A DNA stretch of 32,000 nucleotides from an uncultured archaeon. GTDB taxonomy: Archaea; Asgardarchaeota; Jordiarchaeia; Jordiarchaeales; Jordiarchaeaceae. Shown piece by piece: positions 12,933 to 30,570 of the stretch (positions are counted from its first letter, which is position 1; each line of letters begins with the position of its first letter). Under the pieces are notes generated by a model. That model was not told the origin of the DNA, made no database searches, and saw nothing but the letters and a program-made list of their open reading frames with translations. The position numbers and the translations under genes were made by a program. Location of the stretch: the NCBI GenBank assembly GCA_964510585.1, contig CAZECW010000076.1:1-32000 (forward strand), given 5' to 3'.

Positions 12933-13073
12933 GAAATAACAGTTTATCTAAATACAAGGGCCTGTTGTAATAAAATATATTAAACAAACAGTTTGACGGG
13001 CATCATAAAAAGTACTACATCCGCCCAATAAAATGAGAAATATATGTTCACTAGAAGAATGGGTTGACAAAAG

Positions 13074-13271: not shown

Positions 13272-13291
13272 ATTGGAGGTGATTAATGCGA

Positions 13292-15253
13292 ATGAGTAAT
13301 AATGAGAAAACTGCATCGGAACCAGCCATCGGCGTCTACGTTTGCGAGTGAGGCGTTAACATAGGTGGCGTCGTTAACTGCAAAGAAGTAGCAGAATTCG
13401 CGAGTAAACTTCCTAACGTAAAAACATCAAAAACTTATTCGTTCTTCTGCTCAGACCCAGGACAAAAAATAATAAAAGAGGACATAGAAAAACTTGGAAT
13501 AAACAGGGTGGTCGTAGCTTCCTGTACTCCTAAAACACATGAACCCACCTACAGAACATTGTTGCAAAGCGCAGGAATAAGTCCCTACTACTTCCAAATG
13601 GTTAATCTGCGAGAACATTGCTCTTGGGTACATTATAAGAATCCTAAAGAAGCCACAGAAAAAGCAAAACATTTAGTGGCGGCGGGAGTAGCTAGAGCTC
13701 GACTCTTAGAGGATGTACCTCAGAGAACCGTAAAAGTGGAACCCGCGGTTATGGTAGTCGGAGCAGGAATCGCGGGAATAAGCGCAGCAATCACGGTCGC
13801 TAATCATGGACTTAAGGTCTACCTTGTAGAGAAAAAGCCCACCATTGGTGGATTGATGGCCCAGCTTGATAGGACATTTGCTACTGACGATTGTGCAATC
13901 TGAATATTGGCTCCAAAAATGGTTGAAGCTGCTAAACACCCAAACATTAAATTGCTGACCTACACAGAAGTAAAGGAGTTGAAGGGGAGCCCTGGCGAAT
14001 TCATAGTGACTCTACTAAAAAAACCAAGATATGTGAATGAAAGCAAGTGTACGGGATGTGGTGCATGTTCCGAAAAGTGTCCCGTAGAGGTTCCCGACGA
14101 GTTCAACAATGGACTTGGAACAAGGAAAGCCATATACATACCGTTCTCTCAAGCGGTGCCTAAGATTGCTTTAATATCTATGGAGGATTGTATTCAATGC
14201 AAGTCTTGTGAACGCCAATGCTTAGCTGGAGCGATTGACTATGATCAGAAACCAGAAGAATTCGAGGTTAAAGTCGGCGCGATTATAGTAGCAACAGGTG
14301 CGGATATCTATGATGCGGCTGAACGGAAAGATTATGGTTATGGAATATACGAAAATGTTATCACACAAATGGAACTGGAGCGAATGTTAAGTCCTACTGG
14401 CCCCACATTTGGGCATATTTACAGGATTTCAGACAGAAAGGTACCAAAGCGAATCGCAATGATCCAGTGTGTTGGCTCGAGAGACATAAAAACTAATCCT
14501 TACTGCTCCGAGGTCTGTTGCATGGTAGCAATGAAGAATGCAAAACTAATAAAACAGCACGATCCGAACACCGAAGTAACCATATACTATATGGATATGA
14601 GAACTGTAGATGAAGGACACGAAGAGTACTATATGGGAGCCAGAGGACACGGAGTGAAATTCGTAAGAGGCAATGTGGCCAGAGTCAAAGAAGACCCCAA
14701 AACCAAAAATCTACTGCTCAGGGTTGAGGACACATTAACAGGAGAAATAAAAAGAGAAGAAGTTGATTTGCTGGTTCTTTCAACTGCAGTAATACCATCA
14801 AAATCGGGAACAGAACTCGGTGCGATTCTGGGCATTGATATGTCAGCAAGTGGCTTCCTCAGACCAGTGCACTCAGGACTTAGCCCACAAGAAACAAAAA
14901 CACGTGGAATTTATATTTGTGGCATAGCACAGGGACCAAAGGATATATCCTACGCAGTTTCTTCAGCTAAGGCTGCGGCGTCAGCTGCTACAGCTTGGTG
15001 TCTTGCGGGAGAAGCGACGCTAGAGTTAATAACTCCAATTGTTGAAGAGAAACTTTGCATTGGCTGCAGGAGATGCGAAAGAAACTGTCCATTCGGAGCC
15101 ATTAAAGTGATTGAGGGTGTAGCGAAAGTAGACGAAGCAAGTTGCAAAGGTTGCGGAATCTGTGTCGCTTCATGTCCAGCACATGCTCTGGATCTCAGAT
15201 ATTACCGCGACAAACAGATAAGGGAAGAGACGGCAGCGCTAGTTGAAACTTAA
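13292..15253 (+). CDS. hdrA: Selenocysteine-containing HdrA (653 aa; Sec20 and Sec204)
   Basis: One continuous frame from ATG 13292 (GGAGGTGA SD at 13275-13282) to TAA 15253, with in-frame TGA at 13349-13351 (GVYVCE-U-GVNIGG) and 13901-13903 (TDDCAI-U-ILAPKM). Both align with TGT-encoded Cys in the neighbouring hdrA (10808, 9599). A SECIS-like hairpin follows the stop. Confidence 0.92.
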
Positions 15254-15259
15254 TCCATA

Positions 15260-15316
15260 TGCTTAATGATTCCATCAGCGAAAGCCTTGACTGGTGGATG
15301 AAGGCTCTGGTAAGCA
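15260..15316 (+). promoter_or_regulatory. SECIS element (eukaryote/Asgard type) for Sec-hdrA
   Basis: ATGA(15266-69)-T-TCCATCAG / loop CGAAAGCCTTGA / CTGGTGGA-T-GA(15300-01); lower stem TGCTTA/TAAGCA; begins 12 nt after the stop. Confidence 0.8.
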
Positions 15317-15369
15317 ACCAGTAGGATTAAAAAATATAATTAAAAAAGGTGTGTGTTGGAGGAAATAGG

Positions 15370-15777
15370 TTGACATATCAAGTTGTTGTATATGCGTGTT
15401 GGAAATGAGGTTATGGAGTAGCCGACCTCACAGGTGTTTCCAGGGTGGCTTATGACCCAGCCCTTAGAATCGTGCGTTTAAGGTGTACGGGACGCCTGGA
15501 TAGTTCGTTATTGCTGGAGCCGATTTGTAATGGTGCAGATGGCGTTATGGTGGTGGGATGACATATAGGTGAGTGCGACTTTGAAAAGGGAAACATTATG
15601 GCAGAGAAACATGTGAACTTTGTTAAAAGAATTCTTGAAAGACGTGGAATCGGAGGCGATCGGGTTAATATGTATCATTGTTCAGCGGCTGAGGTTGGTC
15701 GATTCAAGGAATCCGTTGAGGATATGATGGGCAAAATCAGAAAACTGGGACCTAATCCCTTAAGACAAGAAAAATAG
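15370..15777 (+). CDS. mvhD: Selenocysteine-containing MvhD/VhuD (135 aa; Sec13 and Sec64), absent from the ORF track
   Basis: TTG start 7 nt after GGAGG. Translation MTYQVVVYACWK-U-GYGVADLTGVSR...RLRCTGR...GADGVMVVG-U-HIGECDF...YHCSAAE...LGPNPLRQEK. TGA at 15406-08 and 15559-61 align with TGC Cys codons of the Cys paralogue (12564, 12717). Confidence 0.93.
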
Positions 15778-15781
15778 TTAC

Positions 15782-15862
15782 GGTTACTCCTCGGATGATC
15801 CTGAATCAATAAATCTCTGAAGATTCAGGAGACAATCCTCGTAAGCGGAGGGTTAAGTAACC
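15782..15862 (+). promoter_or_regulatory. SECIS element (eukaryote/Asgard type) for Sec-mvhD
   Basis: ATGA(15795-98)-TCCTGAATC / loop AATAAATCTCTGAA / GATTCAGGA-GA(15831-32); outer stems CTCC/GGAG and GGTTACT/AGTAACC. Confidence 0.82.
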
Positions 15863-15895
15863 TCTTGGCGGATATCCTGAATGGAGGTCACATAG

Positions 15896-17332
15896 TTGGC
15901 AAATAAACTAGATTTAGATGCTACGTTGGAAGCATTGAAGAGTTTTAGGGTTCGTGCCTTGTTCGGAGGAGAAAAAGAGATTGTCGAGTGTGGAAAAATA
16001 ACCCGTGAAGAATGGGAGAAACTCTTAGATTTCGTCGTGGACGATGAAACTGAGCGTAGAAAAGTTTTGTTAACTGTTAAGAGATTAGGCAGCGCATCCT
16101 TGTCTCGACTGGAACAAGAGTTAGAAATGTCTAATTTCAGTATTCAAAAACATCTTCGACTCCTGGAGTACGAAGGCTTAGTTGAGAGAAGCTCTGACAA
16201 TTTTTCAGAAGAAATTTATAAGCCTGTTTTAAAATCAGGGCCTTCGAGGCCTCCTTTTGAAAAAATCAAATTTATTGTAGATGAGAAGCTCTGCGTGGAC
16301 TGCGGAGCATGTGTAAGTTATTGCCCAACTAACGCAATAACTATTATTGATGAAGCCCCAGTAATTGATGAGGATAAGTGCATTGGGTGTGGCATCTGTA
16401 ATAGTGTAGCTTGCCCTAGAACCTTTCTCTATCTAGATCTTTTGAGATATTATGTAAAGGGTGAAACATGTAAACTTGATCAGGAACCAATAGCAGCATA
16501 TAAGAGCGCCTTTGCGGCGCAAACCATGAAGGAGGAAATAAGAAAAGTTTGCCAGGATGGAGGCATAGTAACATCAATATTGGCTTATCTTTTTGATCAC
16601 AACTTGATAGATGGAGCATTAGTGGTTAAAAAAAGAGGGGAAAACTGGGTCTCCGAACCGGTGGTGGTAACTAACAAGGAGGAACTACTTGAGACAGCAG
16701 GTACCAAGTATGTTGTTACTCCCACACTAGTAGGATTAGAAAAAGCCAAAAAGATGGGGCTTAAAAAAATTGCTGTGGTTGGAACTCCCTGCCAGATTCA
16801 GGCAGTCAGGAAGACGCAGGTCTTTTCAAGCGCCTTCCAAGAAATTATGGGGAGAATAGTTCTTGTAATAGGAATATTCTGCATGGAGAATTTTTCTTAC
16901 CAGAATATGAAGAAAATTGTTGAAGAATATTGCAAGGTGAATCTAGAAAACGCACGCAAAATGGATATTAGCAAGGGCCAATTCTCAGTACACTCCAAAA
17001 CCGGCGAAAAATCTTCAGTACCAGTTAAAGATATAACGGGTTTGGCGAGGCCAGCTTGCCATGTGTGTCCAGATCTCACCAATGAGCTTGCAGACATCTC
17101 AGTAGGCTCCATAGGATCACCGCCAGATTGGTCAACTGTACTTATTAGAACAGAGAAAGGTGGGGAAATTTTCCGAAAAGCCCAGGAGGAGGGGTACTTG
17201 ACTTCGAAACCGTTGGAAGAAAGTGAAACAGGACTCCCCCTACTTATAAAATTAGCGAGAGGGAAAAGAAAGAGAAACCTTGAAAAACTAGAATCCAAAA
17301 GAGCAGAAGGGAAATATGCTACCCATTTCTAG
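15896..17332 (+). CDS. FrhB/FdhB-family F420-binding flavoprotein with an N-terminal winged-helix-like domain and a 2x[4Fe-4S] ferredoxin
   Basis: SLSRLEQELEMSNFSIQKHLRLLEYEGLV (wHTH-like); CVDCGACVSYCP and CIGCGICNSVACP; QDGG, GTKY, VGTPCQ, GIFCMENF, CHVC.D...ELADISVGS.GSP; TTG start with GGAGGT SD. Confidence 0.85.
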   Translation: MANKLDLDATLEALKSFRVRALFGGEKEIVECGKITREEWEKLLDFVVDDETERRKVLLTVKRLGSASLSRLEQELEMSNFSIQKHLRLLEYEGLVERSSDNFSEEIYKPVLKSGPSRPPFEKIKFIVDEKLCVDCGACVSYCPTNAITIIDEAPVIDEDKCIGCGICNSVACPRTFLYLDLLRYYVKGETCKLDQEPIAAYKSAFAAQTMKEEIRKVCQDGGIVTSILAYLFDHNLIDGALVVKKRGENWVSEPVVVTNKEELLETAGTKYVVTPTLVGLEKAKKMGLKKIAVVGTPCQIQAVRKTQVFSSAFQEIMGRIVLVIGIFCMENFSYQNMKKIVEEYCKVNLENARKMDISKGQFSVHSKTGEKSSVPVKDITGLARPACHVCPDLTNELADISVGSIGSPPDWSTVLIRTEKGGEIFRKAQEEGYLTSKPLEESETGLPLLIKLARGKRKRNLEKLESKRAEGKYATHF

Positions 17333-17358: not shown

Positions 17359-18651
17359 TCATAGGGTCTGAATTGTTTCAAGCTCAAATTCGCAGTAATC
17401 GCTTCCCATAGCTATACACTTTGTTTCTCTGCAAGTCCATTCTTTATTTGTGATCTCTTGAAGAATGCCCGCAAGAGCACCCGCAACAAAGACACATACG
17501 GGCCTATCAGAATGCTTGTAGGATAGTGCAATTGTGGAAATTCCGGTTATTTTTAGTTTGCCTGTATCAACACTTCCCTCAACTGATAGTACTCTACCCC
17601 ACCCTGAGACAGTGTTGTATTTTAAAACTTCGTATACTGGATTTTTATTAGTTATCAGAGCTACAGGTTTTATTAGAAGAGTTGCCCCACGTCCCACTTT
17701 TTTACCCAATTCGAAGAGAATTTTTTGGCACTCTTCATAGGTGTATTTTTCTTCCACACTTCTAATAAAGAGTATGAAGGTCTGTATTGGGGTTATCACG
17801 TGGTTCCAGCCGAGTATCGAAACCTGTCCCATTTCGTTGAACGACATACTTTCTTTTAATTTAGTGAAGGAGTCATAGAGTGGGAAAAGAGTGATAAATC
17901 TGTTTGGAGTAAAAAGATAAGCGAATCTCTGGTTCAAAATTTTGTGAGCTTCTCTTATTAGGGGAGTTCTTGAAATATGTACGTATGACTGCTTTTTTTC
18001 TTCAACTATTTCAAAACTAAAGTTTATGGCATAGTCAACGATATGAATCAAAGTATTAGTAACCTGTGGTTCATGAACATCGCGGTTTACTATTCCCAGA
18101 AATATTCCTCCCTCGCTCTTAGCGTCAAGAGTTAATTTTCTAATCATTCTCAAAACAGTTTTTGAATCAAAGTCGATAATAGAGGAACTTATATTGGCGT
18201 ATATAACAAGTATCGGCTCATCCGGAAATTTTTGTTTGATCCAGTTTTTTGCGTAGTTTATTTCGTAAATTATTCTGTTTGGTTCATTCGCTATCTCCCT
18301 AATGTTCCTAACTTCATCATAAACCAATCTGGTTTTGTTTTCGCTTGAAATTAAGTCCAAAAAGTAAAAGCGGCCTTCCTGGATAGCATTTTGAAATACT
18401 GTATTCATTTTCTCGGAGAAATTTTTCTTAATTTGTTTATTAATTATTTCGAAGGGCAAATTTGTGTGAACCGTTATAACAACTCCGCCTTTTTCCAAAA
18501 AATTTAAAGCTATTAGGGCCGCAAGTCTATTGGCGTCGTTAAGTGTGAAGGAGTCTGATATTACTAAGATTGACAAGCCATCATATAAGCGCCCCAATGT
18601 TTTATCAATATAGTCAATTTCAGTTTTGCGAATCTTCAAACTGTCTCCCAA
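17359..18651 (-). CDS. Degenerate RecA/KaiC-like domain plus V4R domain protein (paralogue 1)
   Basis: ID..LG.L..G...LVISDSFTLNDA; NISSSIIDF; GIVNRDVH; C-terminal SGWG...PVC...WTCRETKCIAMGSDYCEF. Confidence 0.75.
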   Translation of the reverse strand: MGDSLKIRKTEIDYIDKTLGRLYDGLSILVISDSFTLNDANRLAALIALNFLEKGGVVITVHTNLPFEIINKQIKKNFSEKMNTVFQNAIQEGRFYFLDLISSENKTRLVYDEVRNIREIANEPNRIIYEINYAKNWIKQKFPDEPILVIYANISSSIIDFDSKTVLRMIRKLTLDAKSEGGIFLGIVNRDVHEPQVTNTLIHIVDYAINFSFEIVEEKKQSYVHISRTPLIREAHKILNQRFAYLFTPNRFITLFPLYDSFTKLKESMSFNEMGQVSILGWNHVITPIQTFILFIRSVEEKYTYEECQKILFELGKKVGRGATLLIKPVALITNKNPVYEVLKYNTVSGWGRVLSVEGSVDTGKLKITGISTIALSYKHSDRPVCVFVAGALAGILQEITNKEWTCRETKCIAMGSDYCEFELETIQTL

Positions 18652-18728
18652 CCTTCAAATCTTCGATTATTAAATCCTGTATAGCTTTCCTTAGAAGCAT
18701 GAGGGAATATGTGCTCGATGCTAAATTT

Positions 18729-20003
18729 TTAAGGGGGCTGTTCAATTTTCGCCTCAAATACGCACCATTCATCCCCTGTGGCTATGCAGTTTGTCTCATC
18801 ACAAACCCACCTCTTTCCTGTAACTCCCTCTAAAATGCCAGCCAAAATGCTTCCAACCAAGACGCAGACTTTGTGGTTGGATTTTCCATAATAGTGGGAT
18901 AACGTCATAAAGTTGTAAATTTTAAATTTTCCAGATTCTGGGCTCCCCTCTCTCTTGATTAGTCTTCCCCAACCCCGAATTAGGAAGTAATTAAGTGTTT
19001 CTCTTAGCAAGTCACTTCCTTCTAAACCATACTTTGATTTGAAAAGATTTGTTATCTCCAAACCCAATTTTCTACCAAAATTTTCCATAAATTTTTCATA
19101 CTCGTTTATGCCCAAAGTCTTTTCAAGTTCTTTAAACAAAAACAAGAATGTACTTAAAGGAGTAATCAAAAATTCCCTATCACGGAGTAAAATTTTCCCA
19201 TCCTCATAGGAAATATTTCTCTTAAAATCGTCAAAGACTGGAGCCATAGCGGGAAGCTTCATAAAATTATTTTTGGAAAAAATGTAAGCATACTTCTGTT
19301 GAATATTTGCTGAGATTGGCTCCAAAACCGGAGATTTTAATACACGAACATATGGCTGTTTTAAGCCTCCCTCCTCCTCAGTTCTGAGTTCTACCACAAA
19401 ATCGGCCAAATGTATAAGCGTATTTAGTATCAGAGGATCGTGAATGTCGCGATTAACTAGTCCCGTGACAATGTCCCCCCAACGCTTTACGTTTGCAGTT
19501 AACCTTCTAAACAATTTTAACACAGTTTCTGAGCCAAAATCAATAATAGACGAACTTAAATTTAGGTACAAAATCATAACTGGTAAGTCTGGTAAAAAAT
19601 TTTTGACTTTTTCCCTTAAATAATTGACTTCAAACATTATCCTGGCTGGATCACTGTAAATTCTGACTATTCCCTTTAAGCCACTTGAACCTTCATAAAA
19701 AGCCTTATCTTGCGTCATATCCAGATAATAACATCTGCCTTCATTAAAGGCATTCCAAACAATATCAGTATCTTCTGATGAAAACCTTGCTTGAATGTCA
19801 TAATTTATCTTAGAGGCCGGCAAACTTGTTCCTACTACTATGCCGCCTCCCCCTTGCTTAATGAAGTTTAAGCCAACCATAAGGTTAAGATTTATGGCAT
19901 CATTTAAAGTGAAAGAATCACATACAAACAAAATTGAAATACCACCGGATAAAACTCCTAGGTACTCGTCTATGAATTCAACCAATGTTTTCTCAATCGT
20001 CAA
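18729..20003 (-). CDS. Degenerate RecA/KaiC-like domain plus V4R domain protein (paralogue 2)
   Basis: DSFTLNDA; NLSSSIIDF; GLVNRDIH; RGWG...KVC...WVCDETNCIATGDEWCVF. Confidence 0.75.
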   Translation of the reverse strand: MTIEKTLVEFIDEYLGVLSGGISILFVCDSFTLNDAINLNLMVGLNFIKQGGGGIVVGTSLPASKINYDIQARFSSEDTDIVWNAFNEGRCYYLDMTQDKAFYEGSSGLKGIVRIYSDPARIMFEVNYLREKVKNFLPDLPVMILYLNLSSSIIDFGSETVLKLFRRLTANVKRWGDIVTGLVNRDIHDPLILNTLIHLADFVVELRTEEEGGLKQPYVRVLKSPVLEPISANIQQKYAYIFSKNNFMKLPAMAPVFDDFKRNISYEDGKILLRDREFLITPLSTFLFLFKELEKTLGINEYEKFMENFGRKLGLEITNLFKSKYGLEGSDLLRETLNYFLIRGWGRLIKREGSPESGKFKIYNFMTLSHYYGKSNHKVCVLVGSILAGILEGVTGKRWVCDETNCIATGDEWCVFEAKIEQPP

Positions 20004-20054
20004 ACTTTATCCCTCATTATAACTTTTGTTTACCCTCTTGAATAATGGATGAGT

Positions 20055-21332
20055 TTAACCCACAAGTTTCAATTCGAACTTACACCTACTGTTTCCTTTG
20101 GCAGTACACTCTTGTTCATCACAAGTCCAGTTTCGTGAGGAGATTTCTTCTAGGACTCCCTGTAGAACGCCTCCTTGGATTATACAAACGGGATAATCGG
20201 ATTTTCCATAATTGGCGGCAAAGTTGGAAGAGCCTTCAACTATTATGTGTCCGGATTCAATGTCTCCTTTGGGTATGTTGAATTTGCCCCATCCTGTAAT
20301 CGAGAGGTGATTTACTGCGGCTTTAAAAATTTCTTCGTTAGTCAACCTCACTCGGGAAGACAGTGTTCGTACAATGTGTGACCCTATGAGCCTGCCCACA
20401 TTTTTTACTATTTTTGTGTATTCGTTTTTCCCCAGTTTTTTTTCAATTTCTTTTAGAAGAATTACGAAGGAGGGGATCTCAGAAATAATGTAATTCGTTT
20501 CGTAGGCTATTACTTCTCCTCTTTCAAGGTAAGAGATACTTGCCTTCAACTCTTCAAAGGACGTAGGAATAGTGGGTAGAGTGTAAAAGTTGTTGTCAAA
20601 CAAGTCATAAGTAAATTTTTTGTATAATCTTTTATTAGTATCCGTAGAAAGGGGGCTTCTGGCCACAGATACATAGGGTTGCTTTTTACCTTCAATAAAA
20701 TCTACTCCAAATTCAAGTATATAATCAGCCAAGTGAGTTAGGGAGTTAGCTATGCTCAGCTCCTGCATTTCCCGATTTAAAACCCCCAGGAACAAATCAC
20801 CATGCATCTTAACATTTAGTATCAATTTTCTTATCATGCTTAAAACGGCTCTCGGTTCAAAATCCATAATCAGTGAGCTAATGTTCGATTGCAAAATAAG
20901 AATGGGGGCATCGGAAGAACACTTAATATTATCCCTTGTGTTTAAAATTTCATATAGAATTCTGTTGAGGTCATTTACAATAATCTTAACACATTCTGAC
21001 TGGCTAAGGGCAAAGTTATCGATATTTTCCTCTGGTACAATGTTAAGATAGCGTAATCGACCCTCATTCATTGCATCTTGCAAAACACGTCCTTTTTCTG
21101 GAGAGCTGAAATAGATTTCATCTTTTGTTGCAGAAGAGAAGGGAGGGTTTTCATAGAGAAAAATGCACCCTCCACCATTTTTCAAAATGTTTAATGCCAC
21201 TGAATCTGCCAATCTTTGAGCATCATTTATGGTGTTTGAATCCGCTGAAATCAACATTGGTAAACCGCGGTAAAGAACGCCCAGAGAGTGATCCAGAAAC
21301 TCTATTCCAATGTTTTTAATTTTCAAGTCCAC
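20055..21332 (-). CDS. Degenerate RecA/KaiC-like domain plus V4R domain protein (paralogue 3)
   Basis: DSNTINDA; NISSLIMDF; GVLNREMQ; TGWG...PVC...WTCDEQECTAKGNSRCKF. Confidence 0.75.
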   Translation of the reverse strand: MDLKIKNIGIEFLDHSLGVLYRGLPMLISADSNTINDAQRLADSVALNILKNGGGCIFLYENPPFSSATKDEIYFSSPEKGRVLQDAMNEGRLRYLNIVPEENIDNFALSQSECVKIIVNDLNRILYEILNTRDNIKCSSDAPILILQSNISSLIMDFEPRAVLSMIRKLILNVKMHGDLFLGVLNREMQELSIANSLTHLADYILEFGVDFIEGKKQPYVSVARSPLSTDTNKRLYKKFTYDLFDNNFYTLPTIPTSFEELKASISYLERGEVIAYETNYIISEIPSFVILLKEIEKKLGKNEYTKIVKNVGRLIGSHIVRTLSSRVRLTNEEIFKAAVNHLSITGWGKFNIPKGDIESGHIIVEGSSNFAANYGKSDYPVCIIQGGVLQGVLEEISSRNWTCDEQECTAKGNSRCKFELKLVG

Positions 21333-21386
21333 AACCCCTTAAAGACCAAAAATTGAATAATTTATAAAAATTGATTATTTCATGAA

Positions 21387-22670
21387 TCATATTTGGGTCA
21401 ATTCAAATTCACAATAATCGTCACCCATAGCAATGCACCTTACCTCTTTACTAACCCACTTTTTTCCTGTAATTTCTTGAACCGCACCTAGTAAACCGCC
21501 CTCGATTAATATATCCACGGGCTTGTTTGATTTGCCCCACAATTGGGCTAAAGAGGAGTGAACTCTAATTTTTAAACCACCAGATTCAAGACTTCCCTCA
21601 ATGTTTAACACTCTACCGTAACCCCTAGCACCGACATACATAAGAGTTGAATGTAAAAGTCGATCCCCTTTTAAATTAAACTCTGATTCAATAATCCTAA
21701 CATTCTTAGCTCCGAAATTTTTAGCAAGCTCCATAATAATTTTTCTATAAGTATCATAATCCAGACTTTTCTCAAAACATAATAGAAGACTCACAAGGAA
21801 TTGTGTGGGAAGCACAAGATGCCTAGTCCCCAATATTGAAATTTCACCTCTTTGATAAAAAACCTGACCGTCTTCCAATTCGTCCAGATAAAAAGATACT
21901 GGTGAAAAGGTTTCAAACTTGTTTCCCGAAATGTAGTACGCAATTTTTTTGTGCAGAAGCTTCTTAACAAACCCAACCATGGACGTTTTAGATACTTGCA
22001 GATAAGGACGGGGTTGATCTTCTCTAAGCTCCAATCCAAACTCCATAGTGTAGTTTGAAAAATGTTTCAGAGTATTTGTTATTTCCAGCTCATGAATGTC
22101 TCTGTTTACTACACCAATGAGAATATCCCCATTCTGCTTTATGTTTGTTATAAATTTTTTAAACATGTTTAAAACGGCCTTCGAATCGAAATCAACCATA
22201 GTAGAGCTAATATTATGATACAAGAGAATAACTGGACTACCGGGAAACATAGCTCTCATCTTTTCCATCGCACGATTAGCTTCATACAGTATTCTATCTA
22301 TGTCATTTCTAACCAGCACCACACCAACCAAGCCCTCAAAGTTTTCCCCAGAAGGAACTCTGCCAGACACAAGATCTAAATATGTGAAACGGCCCTCATC
22401 CATAGCCTTTATTAAAGCATGATACTTATCAGGCAGAAACATATGCTTAAATTTTCTCGCGGCCAAAAAGTGTGGCTCATCCGTTTGAATAGCAACACAA
22501 GGCAATCCCTGATCTATTAGATTAAAAGCAGCTAACATGCTGAGAAGCAAAGCATCATTCAATGTAGCAGAATCAGCTATGAAGAGTAATACTTGACCTC
22601 CAGAAACGCCTCCCAAAGAAAAGTCTACAATTGGAATCCTAGTTTCAAACTCCAAAACCCAATCCCTCAA
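21387..22670 (-). CDS. Degenerate RecA/KaiC-like domain plus V4R domain protein (paralogue 4)
   Basis: DSATLNDA; NISSTMVDF; GVVNRDIH; RGYG...PVD...WVSKEVRCIAMGDDYCEF. Confidence 0.75.
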   Translation of the reverse strand: MRDWVLEFETRIPIVDFSLGGVSGGQVLLFIADSATLNDALLLSMLAAFNLIDQGLPCVAIQTDEPHFLAARKFKHMFLPDKYHALIKAMDEGRFTYLDLVSGRVPSGENFEGLVGVVLVRNDIDRILYEANRAMEKMRAMFPGSPVILLYHNISSTMVDFDSKAVLNMFKKFITNIKQNGDILIGVVNRDIHELEITNTLKHFSNYTMEFGLELREDQPRPYLQVSKTSMVGFVKKLLHKKIAYYISGNKFETFSPVSFYLDELEDGQVFYQRGEISILGTRHLVLPTQFLVSLLLCFEKSLDYDTYRKIIMELAKNFGAKNVRIIESEFNLKGDRLLHSTLMYVGARGYGRVLNIEGSLESGGLKIRVHSSLAQLWGKSNKPVDILIEGGLLGAVQEITGKKWVSKEVRCIAMGDDYCEFELTQI

Positions 22671-22850: not shown

Positions 22851-24011
22851 TTAATTTGTAGCAGATTTTATTTTGATTCTTTTGTTTATAATGTTCCCTT
22901 CGTTATCTTCATAGGACATTTGGAAACTTTGAACGTTCTTTTCACGCAACTCGTAGTTGAGTTCTACTTCTTTTCCCGCAGGTAACCTTTTTACACCCAG
23001 CATATAAGGCGCCGTTTCGAATAGCTCCTCCTTTATGCCAACCACTTTTATTGTAACGCCGTTAAGCTCTTGTCTCGTATTGTTTGTCACATGCAGGAGT
23101 AATTTCTCTTTTTCTTTTCGCTCCACCGAAACCTCTATTGATTGTGGTAACAGTTTCCCTTTCAATATATTCTGAGCTTTTGGCTCTTCGAACAATCCCA
23201 CTTCCTCAATTGGGGGTAATACAATATTTATTGGTATCTGGAACTTAATACTTTCACCAGTAACCTTTACACATGTAATATCAAGATACCAGTAAGAGTA
23301 AGCTCCAAATGTCTGAGACCACTGAGTTCTTTCTGTAGGCTCCCAGAAATAGTTATAGCTGTGCTCAGCGTGCTGCGGTACCCTGATAGATAAGTAGCCC
23401 TGTGTAGGATTCTTTTCCTCAACAGTAGTCAAAATTTCCGGAGGACTCTTTTTAATGTGGACGCAAACCTTTGCATATTTAGGGCAGGAACAACTAATGT
23501 TCGAGTCATTAACTAAATTTACGGATAATAGTTTTAATCCCTCAGTTTTATAATTCAGTTTAATTACCTCACCGGGCTCAACAGCATCCTTTTCGATGCT
23601 AAAGCTCATCCCCTTAATGGTAAGAGAAACAGGATTAGGCTCAAATCTCTGTTCCGACCTTATTTTGATAGGTTTCTCTGAGACAATCTTAAAAGCTTCG
23701 CCGTACCTATCTAGTTTCCCCACAGAAAGAGAGGCCCTTATAAGGTAATGAATATTTTTTCGTATAAGGGTAGGAACCACTCTTCTACTCACAGGTAGTT
23801 CACGTTCTCTCACATAAATCCCGTTTTCAAGAAAGCCCTCACAGAATATCTCACTTGTAGACAGGGGAAGTTCATTTCCACAAGGCAAGTTAGTGAGGAG
23901 AGTAACCCCACCCCACCAAACCTTTGTATCCTCAGCTAGATCAAACTTAGTTACGGTTCTTACGGATGAACCGGCCGTTGCCGTATCCTTTGCGCGTAAC
24001 TCTATTGACAT
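22851..24011 (-). CDS. Arrestin/Vps26-fold-like protein with a SWIM-like CxC-x6-CxH motif and a C-terminal shared domain
   Basis: G.Y...ELPV...VVPT....IHYLIRASL (arrestin-N-like); SIEKDAVEPGEVI.L and IRVP...S...YL.I...IKFQIPINI (arrestin-C-like); SCSCPKYAKVCVH; tail aa 304-386 resembles the tails of the FrhB and uDENN-like proteins. Confidence 0.6.
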   Translation of the reverse strand: MSIELRAKDTATAGSSVRTVTKFDLAEDTKVWWGGVTLLTNLPCGNELPLSTSEIFCEGFLENGIYVRERELPVSRRVVPTLIRKNIHYLIRASLSVGKLDRYGEAFKIVSEKPIKIRSEQRFEPNPVSLTIKGMSFSIEKDAVEPGEVIKLNYKTEGLKLLSVNLVNDSNISCSCPKYAKVCVHIKKSPPEILTTVEEKNPTQGYLSIRVPQHAEHSYNYFWEPTERTQWSQTFGAYSYWYLDITCVKVTGESIKFQIPINIVLPPIEEVGLFEEPKAQNILKGKLLPQSIEVSVERKEKEKLLLHVTNNTRQELNGVTIKVVGIKEELFETAPYMLGVKRLPAGKEVELNYELREKNVQSFQMSYEDNEGNIINKRIKIKSATN

Positions 24012-24051
24012 CAGTAACTACCCTAAAGAGTGAATTATTTGTTTCCTTATA

Positions 24052-24966
24052 CTAGCCTTCAGCATGGGCTCTAACCACAAGATCAGCAAACATAGACATA
24101 TCGGAAAGCAGTGTATCAATCTTCTCCTTCGCTTTTTCATCCAATTCTTGAGTTTTCATTATCAATACTGCTATTATAAATTTGAATACGTGTAAAGAAA
24201 TCTCTTTACCTCCATCCAGTCCCCGCCCAGTGAATTCTGCGGATTCAGACATAAAGAAGTTCTCTCTCAAATTATTACATGCACTTATGAAATCTCTCAG
24301 GTCCCCTCTTAATTGTAATCCTGTGCTAACTCCCTGAACATTGTGTACAATCACATTACCCGAAGTATCACTAATAATAATTCTGGCTGGAATTTCACTC
24401 AACTGTTTCTGGGCAGTTTCAACATGCTTCTCCAAAGACTTGTAACTCGCAACCAATATGTCCCGAAATATTTCAGCGAGTCTCTCCTGTTCATAAATTG
24501 AAGTCACATGAAAAGTAGGATTCCACCTAGAAAACAAATCTAGGAAGATACTCTTAGCCTTTTCCAGATTCGTGTCAAGAAGCTCCTTCACATAATCCTT
24601 CAGATCATACTTGTGGAAGAAAATGTGCACCGCAGGCTTAATATTATTCTTTGTGAACAAATCAATAATCTGTTTAAAGTACTCCTTCGCAGCCTCGAAA
24701 CTCTCAGGCTCATGAAGATCCACAACTGGAATCAAAACATCCGTACCCTGAAACACCTTTGGATCACTAATATAAGACTCTCGGTACTGCTCCTGACCAC
24801 CAAAGTCAAATATTGAAACCTCCAAGCCTAAGAAGGGATGCCTTCTAATCTCATACATAATAGTTGGAGCCGCACCCACAGTCTGTTCAGGCTTCTTGCC
24901 AGCAAACGTAGTCAAATATATACTAGTTTTCCCACATCCTGAAAGTCCAACCAAAGAGATTTTCAA
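24052..24966 (-). CDS. Small GTPase, Rag/Gtr1-like, with a C-terminal roadblock/longin-like domain
   Basis: G1 GLSGCGKT, G2 PT, G3 DFGGQ, G4 HKYD, G5 TSIY; C-terminal RIIISDTSGNVIV... of about 110 aa; TTG start with GGAGG SD. Confidence 0.85.
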   Translation of the reverse strand: MKISLVGLSGCGKTSIYLTTFAGKKPEQTVGAAPTIMYEIRRHPFLGLEVSIFDFGGQEQYRESYISDPKVFQGTDVLIPVVDLHEPESFEAAKEYFKQIIDLFTKNNIKPAVHIFFHKYDLKDYVKELLDTNLEKAKSIFLDLFSRWNPTFHVTSIYEQERLAEIFRDILVASYKSLEKHVETAQKQLSEIPARIIISDTSGNVIVHNVQGVSTGLQLRGDLRDFISACNNLRENFFMSESAEFTGRGLDGGKEISLHVFKFIIAVLIMKTQELDEKAKEKIDTLLSDMSMFADLVVRAHAEG

Positions 24967-25017
24967 CGTTCTCTAACCTCCGCAAACACAAAGAATCAAA
25001 TAACTATTTAACATTTA

Positions 25018-26535
25018 TTATTCCGTTTTCCTACCCTCACTCGCCTTTTTACCCTCAATATCCTTCACACTAAGCTTCTGAGACAGAATAGTCCCCTGCC
25101 TATCAGAAATAGTCAACAAGTACTCCCTATCATCCTTAACCCTAGGATAACAGAATTCAAGCTCCTCAAAAGGATACCACGCCTCAATCTCAGTCTCCCA
25201 AGCATTGCTCTCAAATAAATCCTCCAAGTGAGCAATCCTAACCTTAATATCACTTATTGTTTTCCCCGAATTATTCGATAAAGTTATCTGAAGCATAGTG
25301 TCTCCATTAACAAAACGTGCATCCGAAACTTTAAGCAACTTTTGAAGAGCACGCTCAGTTATCCCTGCCTTCGCTTCTGCCTTCTCCTCAACCAAAGGTA
25401 TTGCTCCCCGCCGTTCTACAGGTTCAGGGATTCCAGCTGCTGTCGGAATATACTTTAAAACGTAGGTTTGACGCCTCCTCTCAGTGTACATTTGCACCTT
25501 CTTTAACCTTGCTAGATTTAAAACCTTCTGCAAACCATCCCGATCTAGGGGCTGTAAAGTTAAATAACCATTCTCCATCGCATCCTCAAGAAGTTCATTA
25601 GCCACACCAGTACGCACCAGTATAGTCGAATACCCGTCAGGAGATCCAACACTCCCTACAGATATGTCAGCTAACTCCGAGGTTAAATCCCTACAATAAT
25701 GACAGCTTGTTGAACGATACTTGTCAAGATCCTTCACCGGCCAAGCAGCAGTCTTATCGCCATTGTAGATTATGTTGAATTTGCCAGCCGATATACTCAT
25801 TTTACTAATGGAACTCAGAGGTATTCCTTGCTTTATTTCAAAGAACTCCTTTAAGCCATCATGATAAAAAGAGTCCATACAGAATAGGCCTATTTTAAAT
25901 ATTTTCACCTTCATAAGTAAGTGGAGCAAACCGAAGGGCTGCTGCTGCATTTTGGTCACTGCGTCTATATTGCAGGGAGTGCCCACAAAGGCTATGGAGC
26001 GATACCCTTTATTAATCGCTTCAACCAAAGCCTCAACAGTTCTGCTGTGAGAGTAAACACTACCAGAAGATTTTAGAAGATCCTCAGAACTTGAGACTAT
26101 TCTTGCAACAGGCTTCCAAGGCTCCCTCTCATCCTTTTGAGTAACTATTGCAGCATCTATCAAACCATGATCCATAGCATACAATAGGAGAGAAGTTACA
26201 ACCCCACCATCCTGACCCTTAACTTTGTCTATCGCAGATTTGCCTATAAAAGCCGCAATGTAATCTCCAATCAAGGACTTTACAGAAGTTATAGTTCTGG
26301 GACAAGCACGGTAACATATTCCACAAGCAGTACATTTCCCAACCAACTTGGGAACCTCATCTTCCATCACAAGAGCCTTCTCAGGACAAACCGAGACACA
26401 GGTGCAACACGCTGTGCAAACGCCGCTCCTAATCACTTCCTGATTTAGGCGTCCAAAGTTTTCAAGCTTTTTCACTTTTAAGAGTCTTTCAGGAAAAGTA
26501 TAACTTACGTACCCTTTTTCCTCCTCGTTTAACAT
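25018..26535 (-). CDS. FrhB-family F420-binding flavoprotein with a C-terminal shared beta-rich domain
   Basis: CTACCTCVSVCP, CTACGICYRACP, QDGG, VGTPCN, GLFCMDSF, CHYC.D...ELADISVGSVGSP; extra C-terminal domain at aa 415-493. Confidence 0.85.
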   Translation of the reverse strand: MLNEEEKGYVSYTFPERLLKVKKLENFGRLNQEVIRSGVCTACCTCVSVCPEKALVMEDEVPKLVGKCTACGICYRACPRTITSVKSLIGDYIAAFIGKSAIDKVKGQDGGVVTSLLLYAMDHGLIDAAIVTQKDEREPWKPVARIVSSSEDLLKSSGSVYSHSRTVEALVEAINKGYRSIAFVGTPCNIDAVTKMQQQPFGLLHLLMKVKIFKIGLFCMDSFYHDGLKEFFEIKQGIPLSSISKMSISAGKFNIIYNGDKTAAWPVKDLDKYRSTSCHYCRDLTSELADISVGSVGSPDGYSTILVRTGVANELLEDAMENGYLTLQPLDRDGLQKVLNLARLKKVQMYTERRRQTYVLKYIPTAAGIPEPVERRGAIPLVEEKAEAKAGITERALQKLLKVSDARFVNGDTMLQITLSNNSGKTISDIKVRIAHLEDLFESNAWETEIEAWYPFEELEFCYPRVKDDREYLLTISDRQGTILSQKLSVKDIEGKKASEGRKTE

Positions 26536-26625
26536 TTATCTGTCTCCTTTCGTTTTTCGTTTCTCCGGTTTCTGAACGTAGATCGGGTCTTCAAACAATA
26601 TAGGGTTATAGAGGTATCTTTCCAA
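26536..26625 (-). CDS. Putative 29-aa leader protein (MERYLYNPILFEDPIYVQKPEKRKTKGDR), not in the ORF track
   Basis: TTG at 26625 five nt after GGAG; its TAA directly abuts the frhB-like ATG (TAAATG); lies downstream of a TTTATATA box. Confidence 0.45.
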   Translation of the reverse strand: MERYLYNPILFEDPIYVQKPEKRKTKGDR

Positions 26626-26666
26626 TTTTGCTCCAAAGTTATAGTTGGAATTATATTCTTGTCAAG

Positions 26667-26680
26667 TATATAAATTTTTT
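26667..26680 (-). promoter_or_regulatory. Candidate TATA box/BRE for the leader ORF-frhB-GTPase-arrestin unit
   Basis: AAAAAA-TTTATATA on the - strand, about 42 nt upstream of the leader TTG. Confidence 0.45.
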
Positions 26681-26817
26681 AGAAGACCTTAGACCTGCGT
26701 TCTAGAATCCTATAATCGTCAATAGTACAGTTTTTTGCATATTTAATACCTTTTCGATTGTGCAGAATGTTGAAAAAAGGTTCATATGGGACGGAAAGCG
26801 TCAATGTTTTTCCAATT

Positions 26818-28860
26818 CTACATTTTTGGAGAGGATTCGGGCGGTTTTTCTTCTTTGGAAGGCCAAGCAAAAATAATTACAGTTAGACAGATGAGGAAGG
26901 GCATAAAGAGTAGGAAAATCTGCAGGTACTGGGAATTCTCGGAGGGAATAATTCCTACTATTAGGACTGTGGGATTTAACTCAGAACTTTGAACATAGAT
27001 CTTTTGGGCGTCAGAAATGGTCTGATAGCCTTGAGAATCTACTGCTCGAGCGTAGAATACCAAGCTGTGATTGTCGAAATTAGAAGAGTCTATGGTAAAG
27101 CTGTGACTGTGGCTTAGCATTGGTGTTGAATTGACGACTACCTTATTGTAGTCTGTAACCACTATTTCTAGGCTAATTATTCCTTGGGGGTCTGTGCAGG
27201 AGATGTTGATTGTGAATTGTTCTCCGGGGTTGATGCTTGTGGGGGCGTTGATGTTGAAAATGGTAGGTTGGTCTGGTGTGAAGCCTACTTCTAGAGTTGT
27301 GGTGTTGTAGAGATGATTGGGTTTGGTTACTGTGATGTTGTACTGTCCGGTTGGGGGTGCGGGGATTTTTATTCGGCCTTGGGAGTCGGTGAGGTAGGTG
27401 TGATAATATTCTGTCCCCTGTATGCAGACTAGGGTGTTGCTCACGGGGCGTCCTTCGCTGTCCTGGATTCTAATCTGCATCATTTGGCCTGGTGTAGGTG
27501 TGTATTCGGGTAGAATGATGTTTAGGCTTTGTGGGATACTGGTCCATATGGGGAGTTCTGGATCTCCTAGTAGGATGTATTCAAAGAATTCCTGTCTGTA
27601 TATGCTGTTTTCAGCCATCCTAAATAGACCCACCTTCTGGTAGTACTCCTGTTTGCTTTCGTATAGGGCGTATCCTGCGCGTTGGGAAAACAGGCCATCA
27701 TTGGTATGGAGGAGTATTTCGAAGAACAATGCGTCTAAGAGAGAATCTGATAAATCATTAATGCTGTCTCCGCCATAGCTTTTTCTAGTAGCTCCAATAT
27801 AAGATATTGCTCCATTATTTGGATTCTTTAACATGGCTTCACCTATACAGTCTCCCACATAGTCTAGACCTGCTGTTAAACAAGCTGAGGCAAAAACTAG
27901 AGGCAGCCTATAACCATTATTTGAACTTGCAGCAGCATCAGAGGTATAATAAGTGCCACCGACGTCAGATGAGACCGAGTCGGTGGAACCGTGGGAGCAT
28001 AGGTTGACTATTGTGCATCCATTATTTATTGCGTTGGTAAAATTGTTTAAAGTTAAATTGTTATAATTGCGTATGGAGTCGTAGAATAGATTTATAAAGT
28101 TCATGCTTAGTTCTTTGGGGAGAATGTGGTCTCGGATGTAGTTTTTGATCCGCCATCCCTGAATGTCATTGCTTTGGCTTAGTTGGCCTCCTGCGAATAC
28201 TGCTGTTTGCATCCATTCTCCAATATGGTTGGCTATTTCTTTTTCGTAGGTGAGTGTTTTGTTTATCATGTTTTCGAGTTCGGTTAGATTTGAGGCGGGC
28301 AGCCTTCCGACGTATAGTTCTGGAATCCAGTCTATTTCGCTGAATTCGCCGTATAACTCATTTTCGTTATCGTCAAATGTTCCATTCAAAGCGGCGTAGT
28401 AATAGTCGCTTGGTACATTGTCCAGTCCAGTCCAAAAGTATCTTATGGGGATTATGCTGGTGTTGCCTGCCAGTAGGACCCAGCGGATGTTCCATTGGTT
28501 GTACGCGTCTGTCAGAAAGTTGCGTATTTTTGATGAACTGTCTTTTCCGGGGTAGTTTTCGTAGATGTAGGTTGTGTTGAATATGGCTGTGGGTATTCCT
28601 TTTTGTGTTTTCCATTCTGCAAATTGTGTCAGATTGGTGTTATTTGCCCATTCTGGGGGGGTTATTATTATGTATTGTGTGGTGTTTGTTTTCAGAATTA
28701 GTGGCGTGGGGATGTCTTTTATTTGTAGGGCTTGTTGGTTCTGTGAAATAACTGCAGGTATCCAGGTGTTGGGGGTGGGGAGGAGTAGGAGTGAAGCTCC
28801 CAAAGTTATCAGAAGTATTAGGAATCCCAGTTTTATGAGTGAAGTTCTCAAGTTGACCAC
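26818..28860 (-). CDS. Membrane-anchored gingipain-like cysteine peptidase (family C25)
   Basis: YIIITP, F..WK..KG, VLLAG, SD.YY, VGRLP, catalytic SHG and SAC, GA..YIGATR, LLGDP; N-terminal signal/TM, C-terminal Ig-like repeats and TM. Confidence 0.88.
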   Translation of the reverse strand: MVNLRTSLIKLGFLILLITLGASLLLLPTPNTWIPAVISQNQQALQIKDIPTPLILKTNTTQYIIITPPEWANNTNLTQFAEWKTQKGIPTAIFNTTYIYENYPGKDSSSKIRNFLTDAYNQWNIRWVLLAGNTSIIPIRYFWTGLDNVPSDYYYAALNGTFDDNENELYGEFSEIDWIPELYVGRLPASNLTELENMINKTLTYEKEIANHIGEWMQTAVFAGGQLSQSNDIQGWRIKNYIRDHILPKELSMNFINLFYDSIRNYNNLTLNNFTNAINNGCTIVNLCSHGSTDSVSSDVGGTYYTSDAAASSNNGYRLPLVFASACLTAGLDYVGDCIGEAMLKNPNNGAISYIGATRKSYGGDSINDLSDSLLDALFFEILLHTNDGLFSQRAGYALYESKQEYYQKVGLFRMAENSIYRQEFFEYILLGDPELPIWTSIPQSLNIILPEYTPTPGQMMQIRIQDSEGRPVSNTLVCIQGTEYYHTYLTDSQGRIKIPAPPTGQYNITVTKPNHLYNTTTLEVGFTPDQPTIFNINAPTSINPGEQFTINISCTDPQGIISLEIVVTDYNKVVVNSTPMLSHSHSFTIDSSNFDNHSLVFYARAVDSQGYQTISDAQKIYVQSSELNPTVLIVGIIPSENSQYLQIFLLFMPFLICLTVIIFAWPSKEEKPPESSPKM

Positions 28861-28951
28861 TCCTCTTTCTGAAAATGGTGGGGAATCCTCAACTAGTTTG
28901 GTTTTTCTATAAAAAATTTGGGAGTTGTTTTCAAGATTTGGGTTTTGTGGT

Positions 28952-29998
28952 TTATTGTATTTCTTTTATTGAGATTCTTTTTACTAGTAGTTTGTTGGTT
29001 CGGTCTTCTATTTTTAGTATATATTCGCCGTCGTTGTCGACTCGGGGGTACTGGAATACTAGTTCTTCGTAGGGGAACCAGAGTTCCACAGTTGTGTCCC
29101 AGGAATAGGTTTCAAAAAATTCTTCGATGTGGGCAATGGATATTTTTATGTTTTCTAATCCTTTTTCAGAGTTGTTCTTGACTGTTATTTTTAGTTTTTT
29201 CTTGTTGTCGGTGAATTCTACGCCCACCAGTTCTATGGGGCTTTCGGGAATGTGTTCGATAGCTCTGGTTTCTATGGCGCTTTTTCCGGATAGCGGGACA
29301 GATCTGGTTTGTGGGCCGCTTAAACCGTAAATGTTGCTGAGAAGGAAGTATATTAGGTTTCTCTGTTTCTCCACATCGCTCTGTAGGGCCTCCATTAACT
29401 CTGATGATATTATTGGTAGGGATATTTCACATATGTTCAGGAGATTATTTTCGATTTCCTCCCCTTCCTTAATAATTTTGTTATCTTCTTGTGTTCTTAT
29501 AGGTTTGCAACAAGCCAAATCCTTCTCTATTAAGATGTAAAGCTTGTCCTGCAAGCTCTCTCTGATTTTCTGAAGTATAACGCTGAGCAACTTATCTCCT
29601 AAAGGTTTAGCTAAACCCACAGGTACACTAACTATTAGAACAAAAACCTCCTCCGTCTCAGGAAACATACCCGCCCTTTGTTTTTCCCTAGCCGACTTCG
29701 CCTTAAATTTCGTGGCGGCATAAACTTTTCCCCCGAACTCTAAATCTACGCGGTTCAGTCCCTCTTTGAAATCGTCTGCTCCCAGCCACCAGACAGGGTG
29801 CTTCTGAATAATTCTCAGCGTTTCTAAATCATTCTTAAGACTCTCTGGGCAGGTAAATAGGGCAAGATGTCCTTTGGTTTCGTGAAAGTAGCACAGGTAA
29901 ATACCAATCAAGCCCTCTAAAATATTTGGGTGCCGCTCTTCCTTCTTTTGTTGAAATTCTAAACCATTAATTACATTATCATTCGAATTTTTGGACAT
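28952..29998 (-). CDS. uDENN/longin-like N-terminal domain plus the C-terminal shared domain
   Basis: GIYLCYFHETKGHLALFTCP resembles the uDENN/longin start (hydrophobic strand-F-x-x-x-x-G-x-x-x-x-x-x-x-P); aa 269-347 are 39/79 identical, without gaps, to aa 415-493 of the FrhB-family protein. Confidence 0.55.
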   Translation of the reverse strand: MSKNSNDNVINGLEFQQKKEERHPNILEGLIGIYLCYFHETKGHLALFTCPESLKNDLETLRIIQKHPVWWLGADDFKEGLNRVDLEFGGKVYAATKFKAKSAREKQRAGMFPETEEVFVLIVSVPVGLAKPLGDKLLSVILQKIRESLQDKLYILIEKDLACCKPIRTQEDNKIIKEGEEIENNLLNICEISLPIISSELMEALQSDVEKQRNLIYFLLSNIYGLSGPQTRSVPLSGKSAIETRAIEHIPESPIELVGVEFTDNKKKLKITVKNNSEKGLENIKISIAHIEEFFETYSWDTTVELWFPYEELVFQYPRVDNDGEYILKIEDRTNKLLVKRISIKEIQ

Positions 29999-30105: not shown

Positions 30106-30570
30106 TTAAACTCTTTTTTCAGCTGTATCCTTAGGTTGTAACTGGATTTCGTAATACCGTGTGTATTTTTTGAATTGGTTGACCCACTTTTTACTGATGA
30201 CGCCTACAATCTGCCCCTGCTTATTAACGACCCCGACCCGCTTCACTTTGGTTTTGTCAAAAAGGGTTTTTAACTCGTCCATAGAAACGTCCTCGCTCAC
30301 CGTTATAATGTCCCTAACCATAACGTCTCCTGCTTTATAGATTCGGGGATCCTTCTCCTTAGCCACCAAACGGAATATGACTCCATCCGTGATTATTCCA
30401 ACAACCTTGTCGTTGTCGTCTTTTACGAATACTGAGCTTATCCAGTTATCCACCATTAGTTTTGCCACTTTGGGTAGGGAGTCGTCGACATGGCAAGTTA
30501 TCACGTCACGGCTAGCCGCATTGACTATTGAGAATTTCTCCCTATTTTCAGTTGACAATCTTTCCACCAA
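30106..30570 (-). CDS. Tandem CBS-domain protein
   Basis: VITC..DDSL..VAKLM....ISSVFV.D...VVGIITD and VM.RDIITV...S........VKRV.VV...G.IVGVIS. Confidence 0.88.
   Translation of the reverse strand: MVERLSTENREKFSIVNAASRDVITCHVDDSLPKVAKLMVDNWISSVFVKDDNDKVVGIITDGVIFRLVAKEKDPRIYKAGDVMVRDIITVSEDVSMDELKTLFDKTKVKRVGVVNKQGQIVGVISKKWVNQFKKYTRYYEIQLQPKDTAEKRV

Follow-up and report, generated by a model that had tools for sequence, protein, structure and literature searches.

Why should three proteins with nothing else in common end in the same domain, and what does that domain have to do with the Rag-like GTPase whose gene lies between two of theirs? The question is raised by 32,000 nucleotides (nt) of DNA from an uncultured archaeon of the family Jordiarchaeaceae (Asgardarchaeota; GenBank assembly GCA_964510585.1, contig CAZECW010000076.1, positions 1 to 32,000), a stretch that we call the window. 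The domain, termed X here, is found at the end of an FrhB-family flavoprotein (FrhB-X), a longin protein (longin-X) and a protein with a predicted arrestin/Vps26 fold (arrestin-X). It was first pointed out in a reading of the DNA letters alone (the original prediction), which suggested that X assembles an enzyme, a GTPase regulator and an adaptor into one complex around the neighbouring GTPase. We conclude that X is a distinct and narrow family, distantly placed in the generic immunoglobulin (Ig)-like clan. At roughly even odds (a probability of about 0.5), it serves as the common docking module of a Rag-centred complex with redox input.

The genes concerned are co-directional on the minus strand (Table 1), in the order CBS pair, 348-amino acid (aa) longin-X, C25 peptidase, 505-aa FrhB-X, 304-aa GTPase and 386-aa arrestin-X, followed by four V4R paralogues. 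Only 51 nt separate FrhB-X from the downstream GTPase gene, and 40 nt separate the GTPase gene from arrestin-X.

Domain X and its relatives

All three open reading frames (ORFs) are real, the residue and nucleotide ranges given for their tails are exact, and a single domain does terminate three otherwise unrelated proteins. A recount of the ungapped alignment between the FrhB and 348-aa protein tails returned the same 39 identities in 79 positions. The domain is longer than the 80 aa or so proposed at the outset, spanning about 95 aa; BLASTP aligns 94 aa of the two tails at 43% identity and with no gaps (E 5e-32). The arrestin tail had been described as a more distant copy, and it is a true homologue. 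It matches each of the other two tails at E 2e-7 in single comparisons, and a profile built only from arrestin-X sequences matches one built only from longin-X sequences with 98.9% probability (E 3.9e-17, 92 columns). Because these profiles were built independently, we take the third copy to be a real homologue. A hidden Markov model (HMM) of the three copies recovers exactly these three, and no further copy, in the window and in the whole 3.78-Mb genome.

The domain had been called unrecognised, and no Pfam model covers it, either in the whole proteins or in 41 members of the family that were scanned. The best single match is to Transglut_C, at E 0.14 (0.017 for the excised domain). No Pfam family recurs across the 41 members at E <= 1; the best matches among them are to CBM49 (six members, E at least 0.023) and GAE_BBS1 (two members, 0.0016).

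A profile of these 41 diverse members was compared with 1.84 billion representative proteins and gave 128 matches at E <= 1e-3. By architecture, 35 are longin-X, 17 arrestin-X, eight FrhB-X and one longin-X with CBS domains. In another 52, most of them short fragments, X has no recognised partner. The weak outliers number about 15 and are for the most part long multi-stretch proteins; two of them have clear Pfam matches to ASH, Cep192_D4, HYDIN-type Ig, DUF1573 or CARDB repeats. Two further weak matches carry CARDB. Nearly all occurrences of X are found in four architectures: FrhB-X, longin-X (with or without CBS domains), arrestin/Vps26-fold-X and a GltD/NfnB-like flavoprotein-X. The last is a fourth class of carrier, additional to the three first proposed, each of which was confirmed. 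Public entries name the homologues "hypothetical protein" or "F420 hydrogenase beta subunit", and their sources are Freyarchaeota/Jordarchaeia, Helarchaeota, Sigynarchaeota and Lokiarchaeia/Promethearchaeota.

As proposed, X is predicted to be a beta-sandwich. It has seven strands in the AlphaFold models of longin-X and arrestin-X, with a predicted local distance difference test (pLDDT) score of about 80-90. In the longin-X model the domain sits behind a low-confidence linker, and in the arrestin-X model a low-confidence stretch (aa 270-281) lies just before it. In FrhB-X, the FrhB domains are followed by about 50 residues of low conservation, which probably form a corresponding linker to X. 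Structural neighbours of X are GH2, the transglutaminase C-terminal domain, HAP2 domain 3 and DUF3244 (Z about 10 over about 90 residues, VIA-align). Foldseek gives weak matches to RhoGDI, UNC119 and FlaF; the match to lipid-binding sandwiches of the RhoGDI/UNC119/PDE-delta kind has E about 7e-4 over 86 columns and a TM score (target) of 0.44. A search of a protein atlas with a language model points to CARDB and Transglut_C, with all scores below 0.85, which makes these leads only. Against PDB, the X profile finds only residues 216-262 of the beta-arrestin C-domain, at a non-significant E of 0.09-0.5. We take the idea that X is a copy of an arrestin lobe as a lead only; hhalign gives X probabilities of 0.2-17% against the N- and C-lobes of arrestin-X itself.

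With CARDB, ASH and Transglut_C (E-set families), X shares the seven-strand sandwich, an h-x-h-x-h-x-N-x-S/T second strand, and weak similarity in profile and language-model searches. Unlike them, it has no significant Pfam match among the 41 members and is limited to four architectures. It is also cytoplasmic, occurs once per protein and is C-terminal after a flexible linker, whereas those families typically form extracellular tandem arrays. The original prediction had allowed that X could prove to be a generic CARDB- or DUF11-like domain scattered without regard to GTPase genes. Remote kinship to CARDB, ASH and Transglut_C does exist; scatter does not, since X is confined to few architectures.

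In X, positions N22, F42 and E43 are kept in every class of carrier. In a tree of 68 X domains, the sequences group by type of carrier and not by genome, and the arrestin-X clade has support of 96/95. The fusions are therefore older than the divergence of these archaeal families, and have been retained.

The GTPase and the proteins that carry X

The best named PDB profile matches of the GTPase are RagA and Gtr1 (about 1e-21, versus 1e-10 for Arf), and its Gtr1_RagA score lies above the Pfam cut-off. The P-loop, DxxGQ and HKxD motifs are invariant among 15 orthologues. The orthologue is single-copy, with 46-71% identity across families. Residues 185-304, where Rag/Gtr proteins have a roadblock domain, have no Pfam match, and we found no C-terminal lipidation motif.

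FrhB-X is a complete FrhB/FdhB-type iron-sulphur (Fe-S) flavoprotein (Pfam FrhB_FdhB_C, 2e-43; FrhB_FdhB_N, 8e-22). Its twelve cysteines (C40/43/46/50, C68/71/74/78 and C188/219/278/281) are all invariant among 19 orthologues. Since the cofactor cysteines of the flavoprotein and the G-motifs of the GTPase are invariant, both proteins are likely active. The fourth carrier is exemplified in family f11 by a 588-aa GltD/NfnB-like NAD(P)H Fe-S flavoprotein with X at its end (L046:8658-10421, plus strand; Fer4_20, 2e-42; Pyr_redox_2, 7e-35).

The 348-aa protein had been labelled uDENN-like, and this label does not hold: the protein is a longin domain with a helical extension. In the model (pLDDT 75) the two together occupy aa 30-224. 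Among 48,161 PDB representatives, the best structural match is FLCN in the FLCN-FNIP2-Rag-Ragulator complex (6nzd_H; Z 10.4, 141 residues aligned, root-mean-square deviation 3.0; VIA-align). Further matches are GATOR1 (8fw5_B, Z 9.9), the Sec22 and VAMP7 longins (Z 9.6-9.9), the SEA complex and the uDENN domain of DENND1A (Z 9.1). As FLCN and GATOR1 are within one Z unit of Sec22 and VAMP7, these scores do not distinguish the subclass of longin. We rejected a DENN identity for this protein. After the longin there are only helices, a disordered linker and X, no DENN family of Pfam matches, and DENND1A is reached via its uDENN domain only. Because a DENN core is lacking, longin is the accurate name.

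A KS.R.K.R.G loop lies between the fourth and fifth strands of longin-X (residues 101-110). A candidate arginine finger is its R104, conserved at about 90% and lacking in one of two tandem longin-X paralogues in f11. In two loci, longin-X continues behind X into four fused CBS domains, giving proteins of 644-645 aa (L035:10780-12711, minus strand; L036:9178-11112, plus strand). X is therefore not always C-terminal, and the neighbouring CBS domains can join the same protein.

The model of the 386-aa protein (pLDDT 85, predicted template modelling score 0.77) shows a two-lobed fold in residues 1-265. Foldseek aligns this region over about 310 columns with VPS26C, Vps26A/B, ARRD-6, TXNIP and beta-arrestin 2 (E 2e-10 to 1e-6). 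Pfam gives no match to Arrestin_N, Arrestin_C or Vps26 in the protein of the window. Four of the five arrestin-X orthologues scanned have Arrestin_C in the C-lobe at E 8e-4 to 0.04, below the 27.7-bit cut-off. C44, C174, C176 and C183 are invariant, including a CxC...C arrangement in the C-lobe, and there is a weak match to a SWIM zinc finger (E 0.049). These cysteines may form a metal site, which would be unusual for arrestin folds.

Distribution, gene order and co-inheritance

We searched 400 genomes of the phylum separately with X, the GTPase (E <= 1e-60), the arrestin core and the longin core. X was identified in 184 genomes (about 179 at E <= 1e-8), usually in three copies on ORFs of about 350, 500 and 390 aa. 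The Rag orthologue is present in 155 genomes, the arrestin core in 137 and the longin core in 162. Apart from families f4 and f11, all four have the same distribution at the level of families, and every listed ORF with a longin or arrestin core is long enough to include X.

Gene order is conserved as well. Of the 50 genomes with listed coordinates for both genes, 44 have no more than 450 nt between the 3' end of FrhB-X and the GTPase gene. Among 20 larger loci, the order FrhB-X, Rag-like GTPase, arrestin-X is kept in seven families; longin-X, usually with an adjoining CBS protein, is encoded at the same locus or elsewhere. The CBS-pair gene is a conserved neighbour of longin-X in many lineages. 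Two families have the four CBS domains fused behind X, and two have a pair of tandem longin-X genes.

Family f11 is an exception in lacking arrestin-X. Some of its genomes carry GltD/NfnB-X at the position occupied by FrhB-X in sister genomes of the same genus. The redox enzyme has been exchanged within a genus, and X has been kept.

Co-folding of X with the GTPase

Two copies of the Rag-like GTPase were co-folded with residues 385-505 of FrhB-X (the linker and X), alongside three controls and using our own alignments. The interface score (ipSAE) was 0.47 (individual runs 0.57, 0.43 and 0.47), versus 0.00 for the best of the three controls, a verdict of weak support. At least 58% of contacts are common to the runs, and the partner has a pLDDT of at least 69. 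In calibration, the mark was reached by 58 of 80 solved complexes and by two of 110 mismatched pairs; the band up to 0.60 holds only seven of the 80 solved complexes, and it holds both of the mismatched pairs that passed. As we used our own alignments and a job of three chains, this calibration applies only roughly here. This prediction makes contact of the GTPase with X or its linker more probable without settling the matter.

What X may do

We consider shared docking to be the best explanation because it accounts for a single tethered module on four proteins, the conserved polar positions, the survival of X through an exchange of enzyme, and co-inheritance with one GTPase. The flexible linkers of 30-50 aa would let X gather proteins of three kinds on one and the same Rag-like GTPase, probably in the form of a dimer. 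One would be a redox flavoprotein, of the FrhB type or, in some genomes, of the GltD/NfnB type. Another would be the longin protein, which resembles Rag GTPase-activating proteins (GAPs) of the FLCN/NPRL2 class and has the conserved loop arginine. The third would be the arrestin/Vps26-fold adaptor. X would bind the GTPase, as the co-fold weakly suggests. The longin protein, as a putative GAP, would set the switch, with the flavoprotein as a putative sensor. The assembly would couple the switch to the redox or energy state of the cell and to a target chosen by the arrestin-fold protein.

That X is an interaction module around the Rag-like GTPase was the central proposal of the original prediction. 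Conserved adjacency, matching phyletic patterns and the weakly positive co-fold agree with it, whereas family f4 keeps FrhB-X and lacks the GTPase. Several observations count against docking on the GTPase. Family f4, which includes two complete genomes, has a clear FrhB-X orthologue, and no Rag orthologue was found at E <= 1e-60, nor a longin or arrestin core. X can therefore persist without the proposed partner. (In the complete genomes, the lone FrhB-X gene is located beside a TrmB-type regulator; L054:9235-10689 and L055:9372-11027.) The largest family has many genomes in which arrestin-X and longin-X are several kb to tens of kb from the GTPase gene, or on other contigs. The lineages that show the pattern may form one clade, in which case matching phyletic patterns could reflect a single gain and not repeated co-selection. 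The co-fold passed in the weak band, and the contact may involve the linker and not X. Lastly, the structural matches of X at Z of about 10 are generic Ig sandwiches that carry no functional signal.

The main rival to docking on the GTPase gives X the role of a hetero-oligomerisation domain. The carriers would bind each other through their X domains to form one particle, and the GTPase would be engaged via the longin and not via X. Most genomes have exactly three X domains, one in each carrier class, and each class is an old lineage, as this reading would expect. The two tandem longin-X genes of some lineages would fit a longin heterodimer, and beta-sandwich domains often pair by their edge strands. 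Yet FrhB-X is the sole X protein in f4, where it might form a homo-oligomer, and the sole co-fold, which paired X with the GTPase, did pass, if weakly. We regard hetero-oligomerisation as a possible reading that is on the unlikely side. Another reading is that X arose as a functional part of the FrhB-type enzyme and is still chiefly that, for example in redox-partner binding or in setting oligomeric state, and that the longin and arrestin copies are secondary and target the enzyme and not the GTPase. FrhB-X is the only carrier found alone, in f4, and is also the one most tightly adjacent to the GTPase gene. Against this stand the ability of a different flavoprotein to take over X at the same locus, and a tree in which the longin and arrestin copies are not nested within those of FrhB (its backbone is poorly resolved). 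Of the alternatives weighed here, we find this the least probable.

It is also conceivable, and to us quite improbable, that X is a generic Ig-like accessory or spacer, or binds a target other than protein, such as a membrane lipid or a cofactor. It would then have spread by shuffling, with its association with the GTPase due to common descent. The generic nature of its nearest structures (GH2, transglutaminase C-terminal domain, HAP2 domain 3) agrees with this, as do the weak resemblance to the lipid-binding RhoGDI and UNC119 sandwiches, the weak reach of the profile to proteins with tandem CARDB, ASH or Cep192_D4 repeats, and the atlas leads to CARDB and Transglut_C. But a freely shuffled domain sits poorly with the occurrence of X proper in only four architectures among 1.84 billion proteins, with its retention through exchange of the flavoprotein, and with polar residues that are invariant across carrier classes. 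As the GTPase has no lipidation motif, a RhoGDI-like X would be without an obvious ligand.

Docking on the GTPase can be extended to a specific function, which we put forward as a doubtful but not idle proposal: that the cluster is an archaeal Rag-GTPase sensor of metabolic state. Redox flavoproteins and CBS domains serve as inputs, longin proteins as GAPs and arrestin folds as adaptors, and it is on these established roles of the carrier families that the sensing interpretation is based. The flavoprotein would report F420/ferredoxin or NAD(P)H redox state and the CBS protein adenine nucleotides, with the longin protein as GAP and the arrestin-fold protein as adaptor, all docked through X on a dimer of the GTPase. 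Such a system would be a prokaryotic forerunner, or an independent analogue, of eukaryotic nutrient sensing by Rag with GATOR1 or FLCN.

Comparison with known systems

The closest comparison is with eukaryotic Rag assemblies, in which FLCN-FNIP or GATOR1 (Nprl2-Nprl3) act with RagA/C or Gtr1/2. The archaeal cluster resembles these in the RagA/Gtr1-like G domain and in a partner longin whose best matches are the FLCN and GATOR1/SEA longins. FLCN/FNIP and Nprl2/Nprl3 are heterodimers with one finger, the known arginines being FLCN R164 and NPRL2 R78. The loss of the loop arginine from one of two tandem longin-X paralogues in one lineage recalls this arrangement; the likeness concerns the presence of a conserved arginine. 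Unlike the eukaryotic assemblies, the cluster has no DENN core, no Depdc5 and no genes for Ragulator-type roadblock proteins, and it encodes a single GTPase instead of a RagA/RagC pair. The partners also differ in that a private Ig-like domain is common to them and that they include an Fe-S flavoprotein; to our knowledge, neither feature has been described in eukaryotes.

By analogy of mechanism, X may be compared with cohesin-dockerin assembly and with the appendage (ear) domains of adaptor complexes, in which a small tethered sandwich common to several proteins brings them to a hub, as X is proposed to do. We found no sequence relation or specific structural relation of X to cohesin-dockerin or appendage domains. 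The N-terminal 265 aa of the 386-aa protein share the two-lobed fold of arrestin and Vps26 and differ from them in what follows, as X forms a third sandwich after the C-lobe. We know of no known arrestin with such a domain.

A preprint (10.1101/2021.02.04.429862) reports, in a Freyrarchaeote and in Lokiarchaeote CR_4, a gene for an "arrestin C-terminal domain protein" located one gene from an "arrestin N-terminal" gene. Identity of X with that protein is unsupported, since it is the C-lobe of arrestin-X, rather than X, that has the sub-threshold Arrestin_C matches, and none was found in the FrhB-X proteins scanned (three of family f20 and that of the window). The GTPase operons described in the preprint of Liu et al. 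on Asgard signature proteins do not include this one, and neither F420 nor V4R is mentioned there in this connection. A 2026 preprint on structural clustering mentions neither arrestin nor FrhB. We found no published description of X or of the cluster in the limited library of literature searched.

Surrounding genes

Table 1. Positions in the window of the genes and domains discussed.
Feature	Position	Strand	Composition or evidence
FrhB-X, 505 aa	25018-26535	-	2x[4Fe-4S] ferredoxin, FrhB_N, FrhB_C, ~50-aa linker, X
Domain X of FrhB-X, aa 400-495	25051-25338	-	
Rag-like GTPase, 304 aa	24052-24966	-	Pfam Gtr1_RagA, 4.8e-20
Arrestin/Vps26-fold protein (arrestin-X), 386 aa	22851-24011	-	Invariant Cys cluster, X last; predicted model, Foldseek
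Domain X of arrestin-X, aa 291-386	22854-23141	-	
Longin-X, 348 aa	28952-29998	-	Longin aa ~30-126, helical to ~224, disordered linker 220-251, X; predicted model
Domain X of longin-X, aa 255-348	28955-29236	-	Strands 255-343, pLDDT 80-90
CBS-pair protein, directly upstream of longin-X	30106-30570	-	Pfam CBS, 1e-20
Peptidase C25 (gingipain-type), between FrhB-X and longin-X	26818-28860	-	4.6e-68
Four tandem ~425-aa paralogues ending in V4R domains, directly downstream of the module	17359-22670	-	

Two sets of neighbours were considered as parts of the module and set aside. The V4R array is adjacent only in the genus of the window itself, which removes the V4R proteins as a common partner. Only the two closest families have the C25 peptidase, a protein with hydrophobic N- and C-terminal segments and CarboxypepD_reg-like domains, inserted between FrhB-X and longin-X. 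The neighbouring Hdr-type cluster (8239-17332) ends with another gene of the FrhB family (15896-17332, plus strand), which lacks X and is a paralogue of FrhB-X (about E 1e-60).

Implications

Asgard archaea encode many small GTPases and many longin and roadblock proteins, and which regulator pairs with which GTPase is hard to tell. In Prometheoarchaeum, GTPase genes are generally not in operons with genes for longin or roadblock regulators, which makes matching difficult (Tran et al., 2024; PMC10933270). The module described here is an exception, because gene order, co-inheritance and a private domain tie a defined longin protein, along with an arrestin-fold protein and a redox enzyme, to one RagA/Gtr1-like GTPase. 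What is new is a Rag-type GTPase with a longin partner that is made distinctive by the private shared domain, the arrestin-fold partner and the flavoenzyme. X itself is a new family that domain databases could take up, and it marks a large block of Asgard lineages.

For an archaeal relative of the switch that senses nutrients in eukaryotes, the proteins of the module make up a set of cognate partners that is rare and can be tested. Three ideas become testable with it: that Rag was paired with longin GAPs before eukaryotes arose, that archaeal arrestin-fold proteins were already at work with GTPases, and that redox or energy state is an input to an archaeal switch. If the cluster is indeed a sensor of metabolic state, the cognate partners of this GTPase would be readable directly from the genome.

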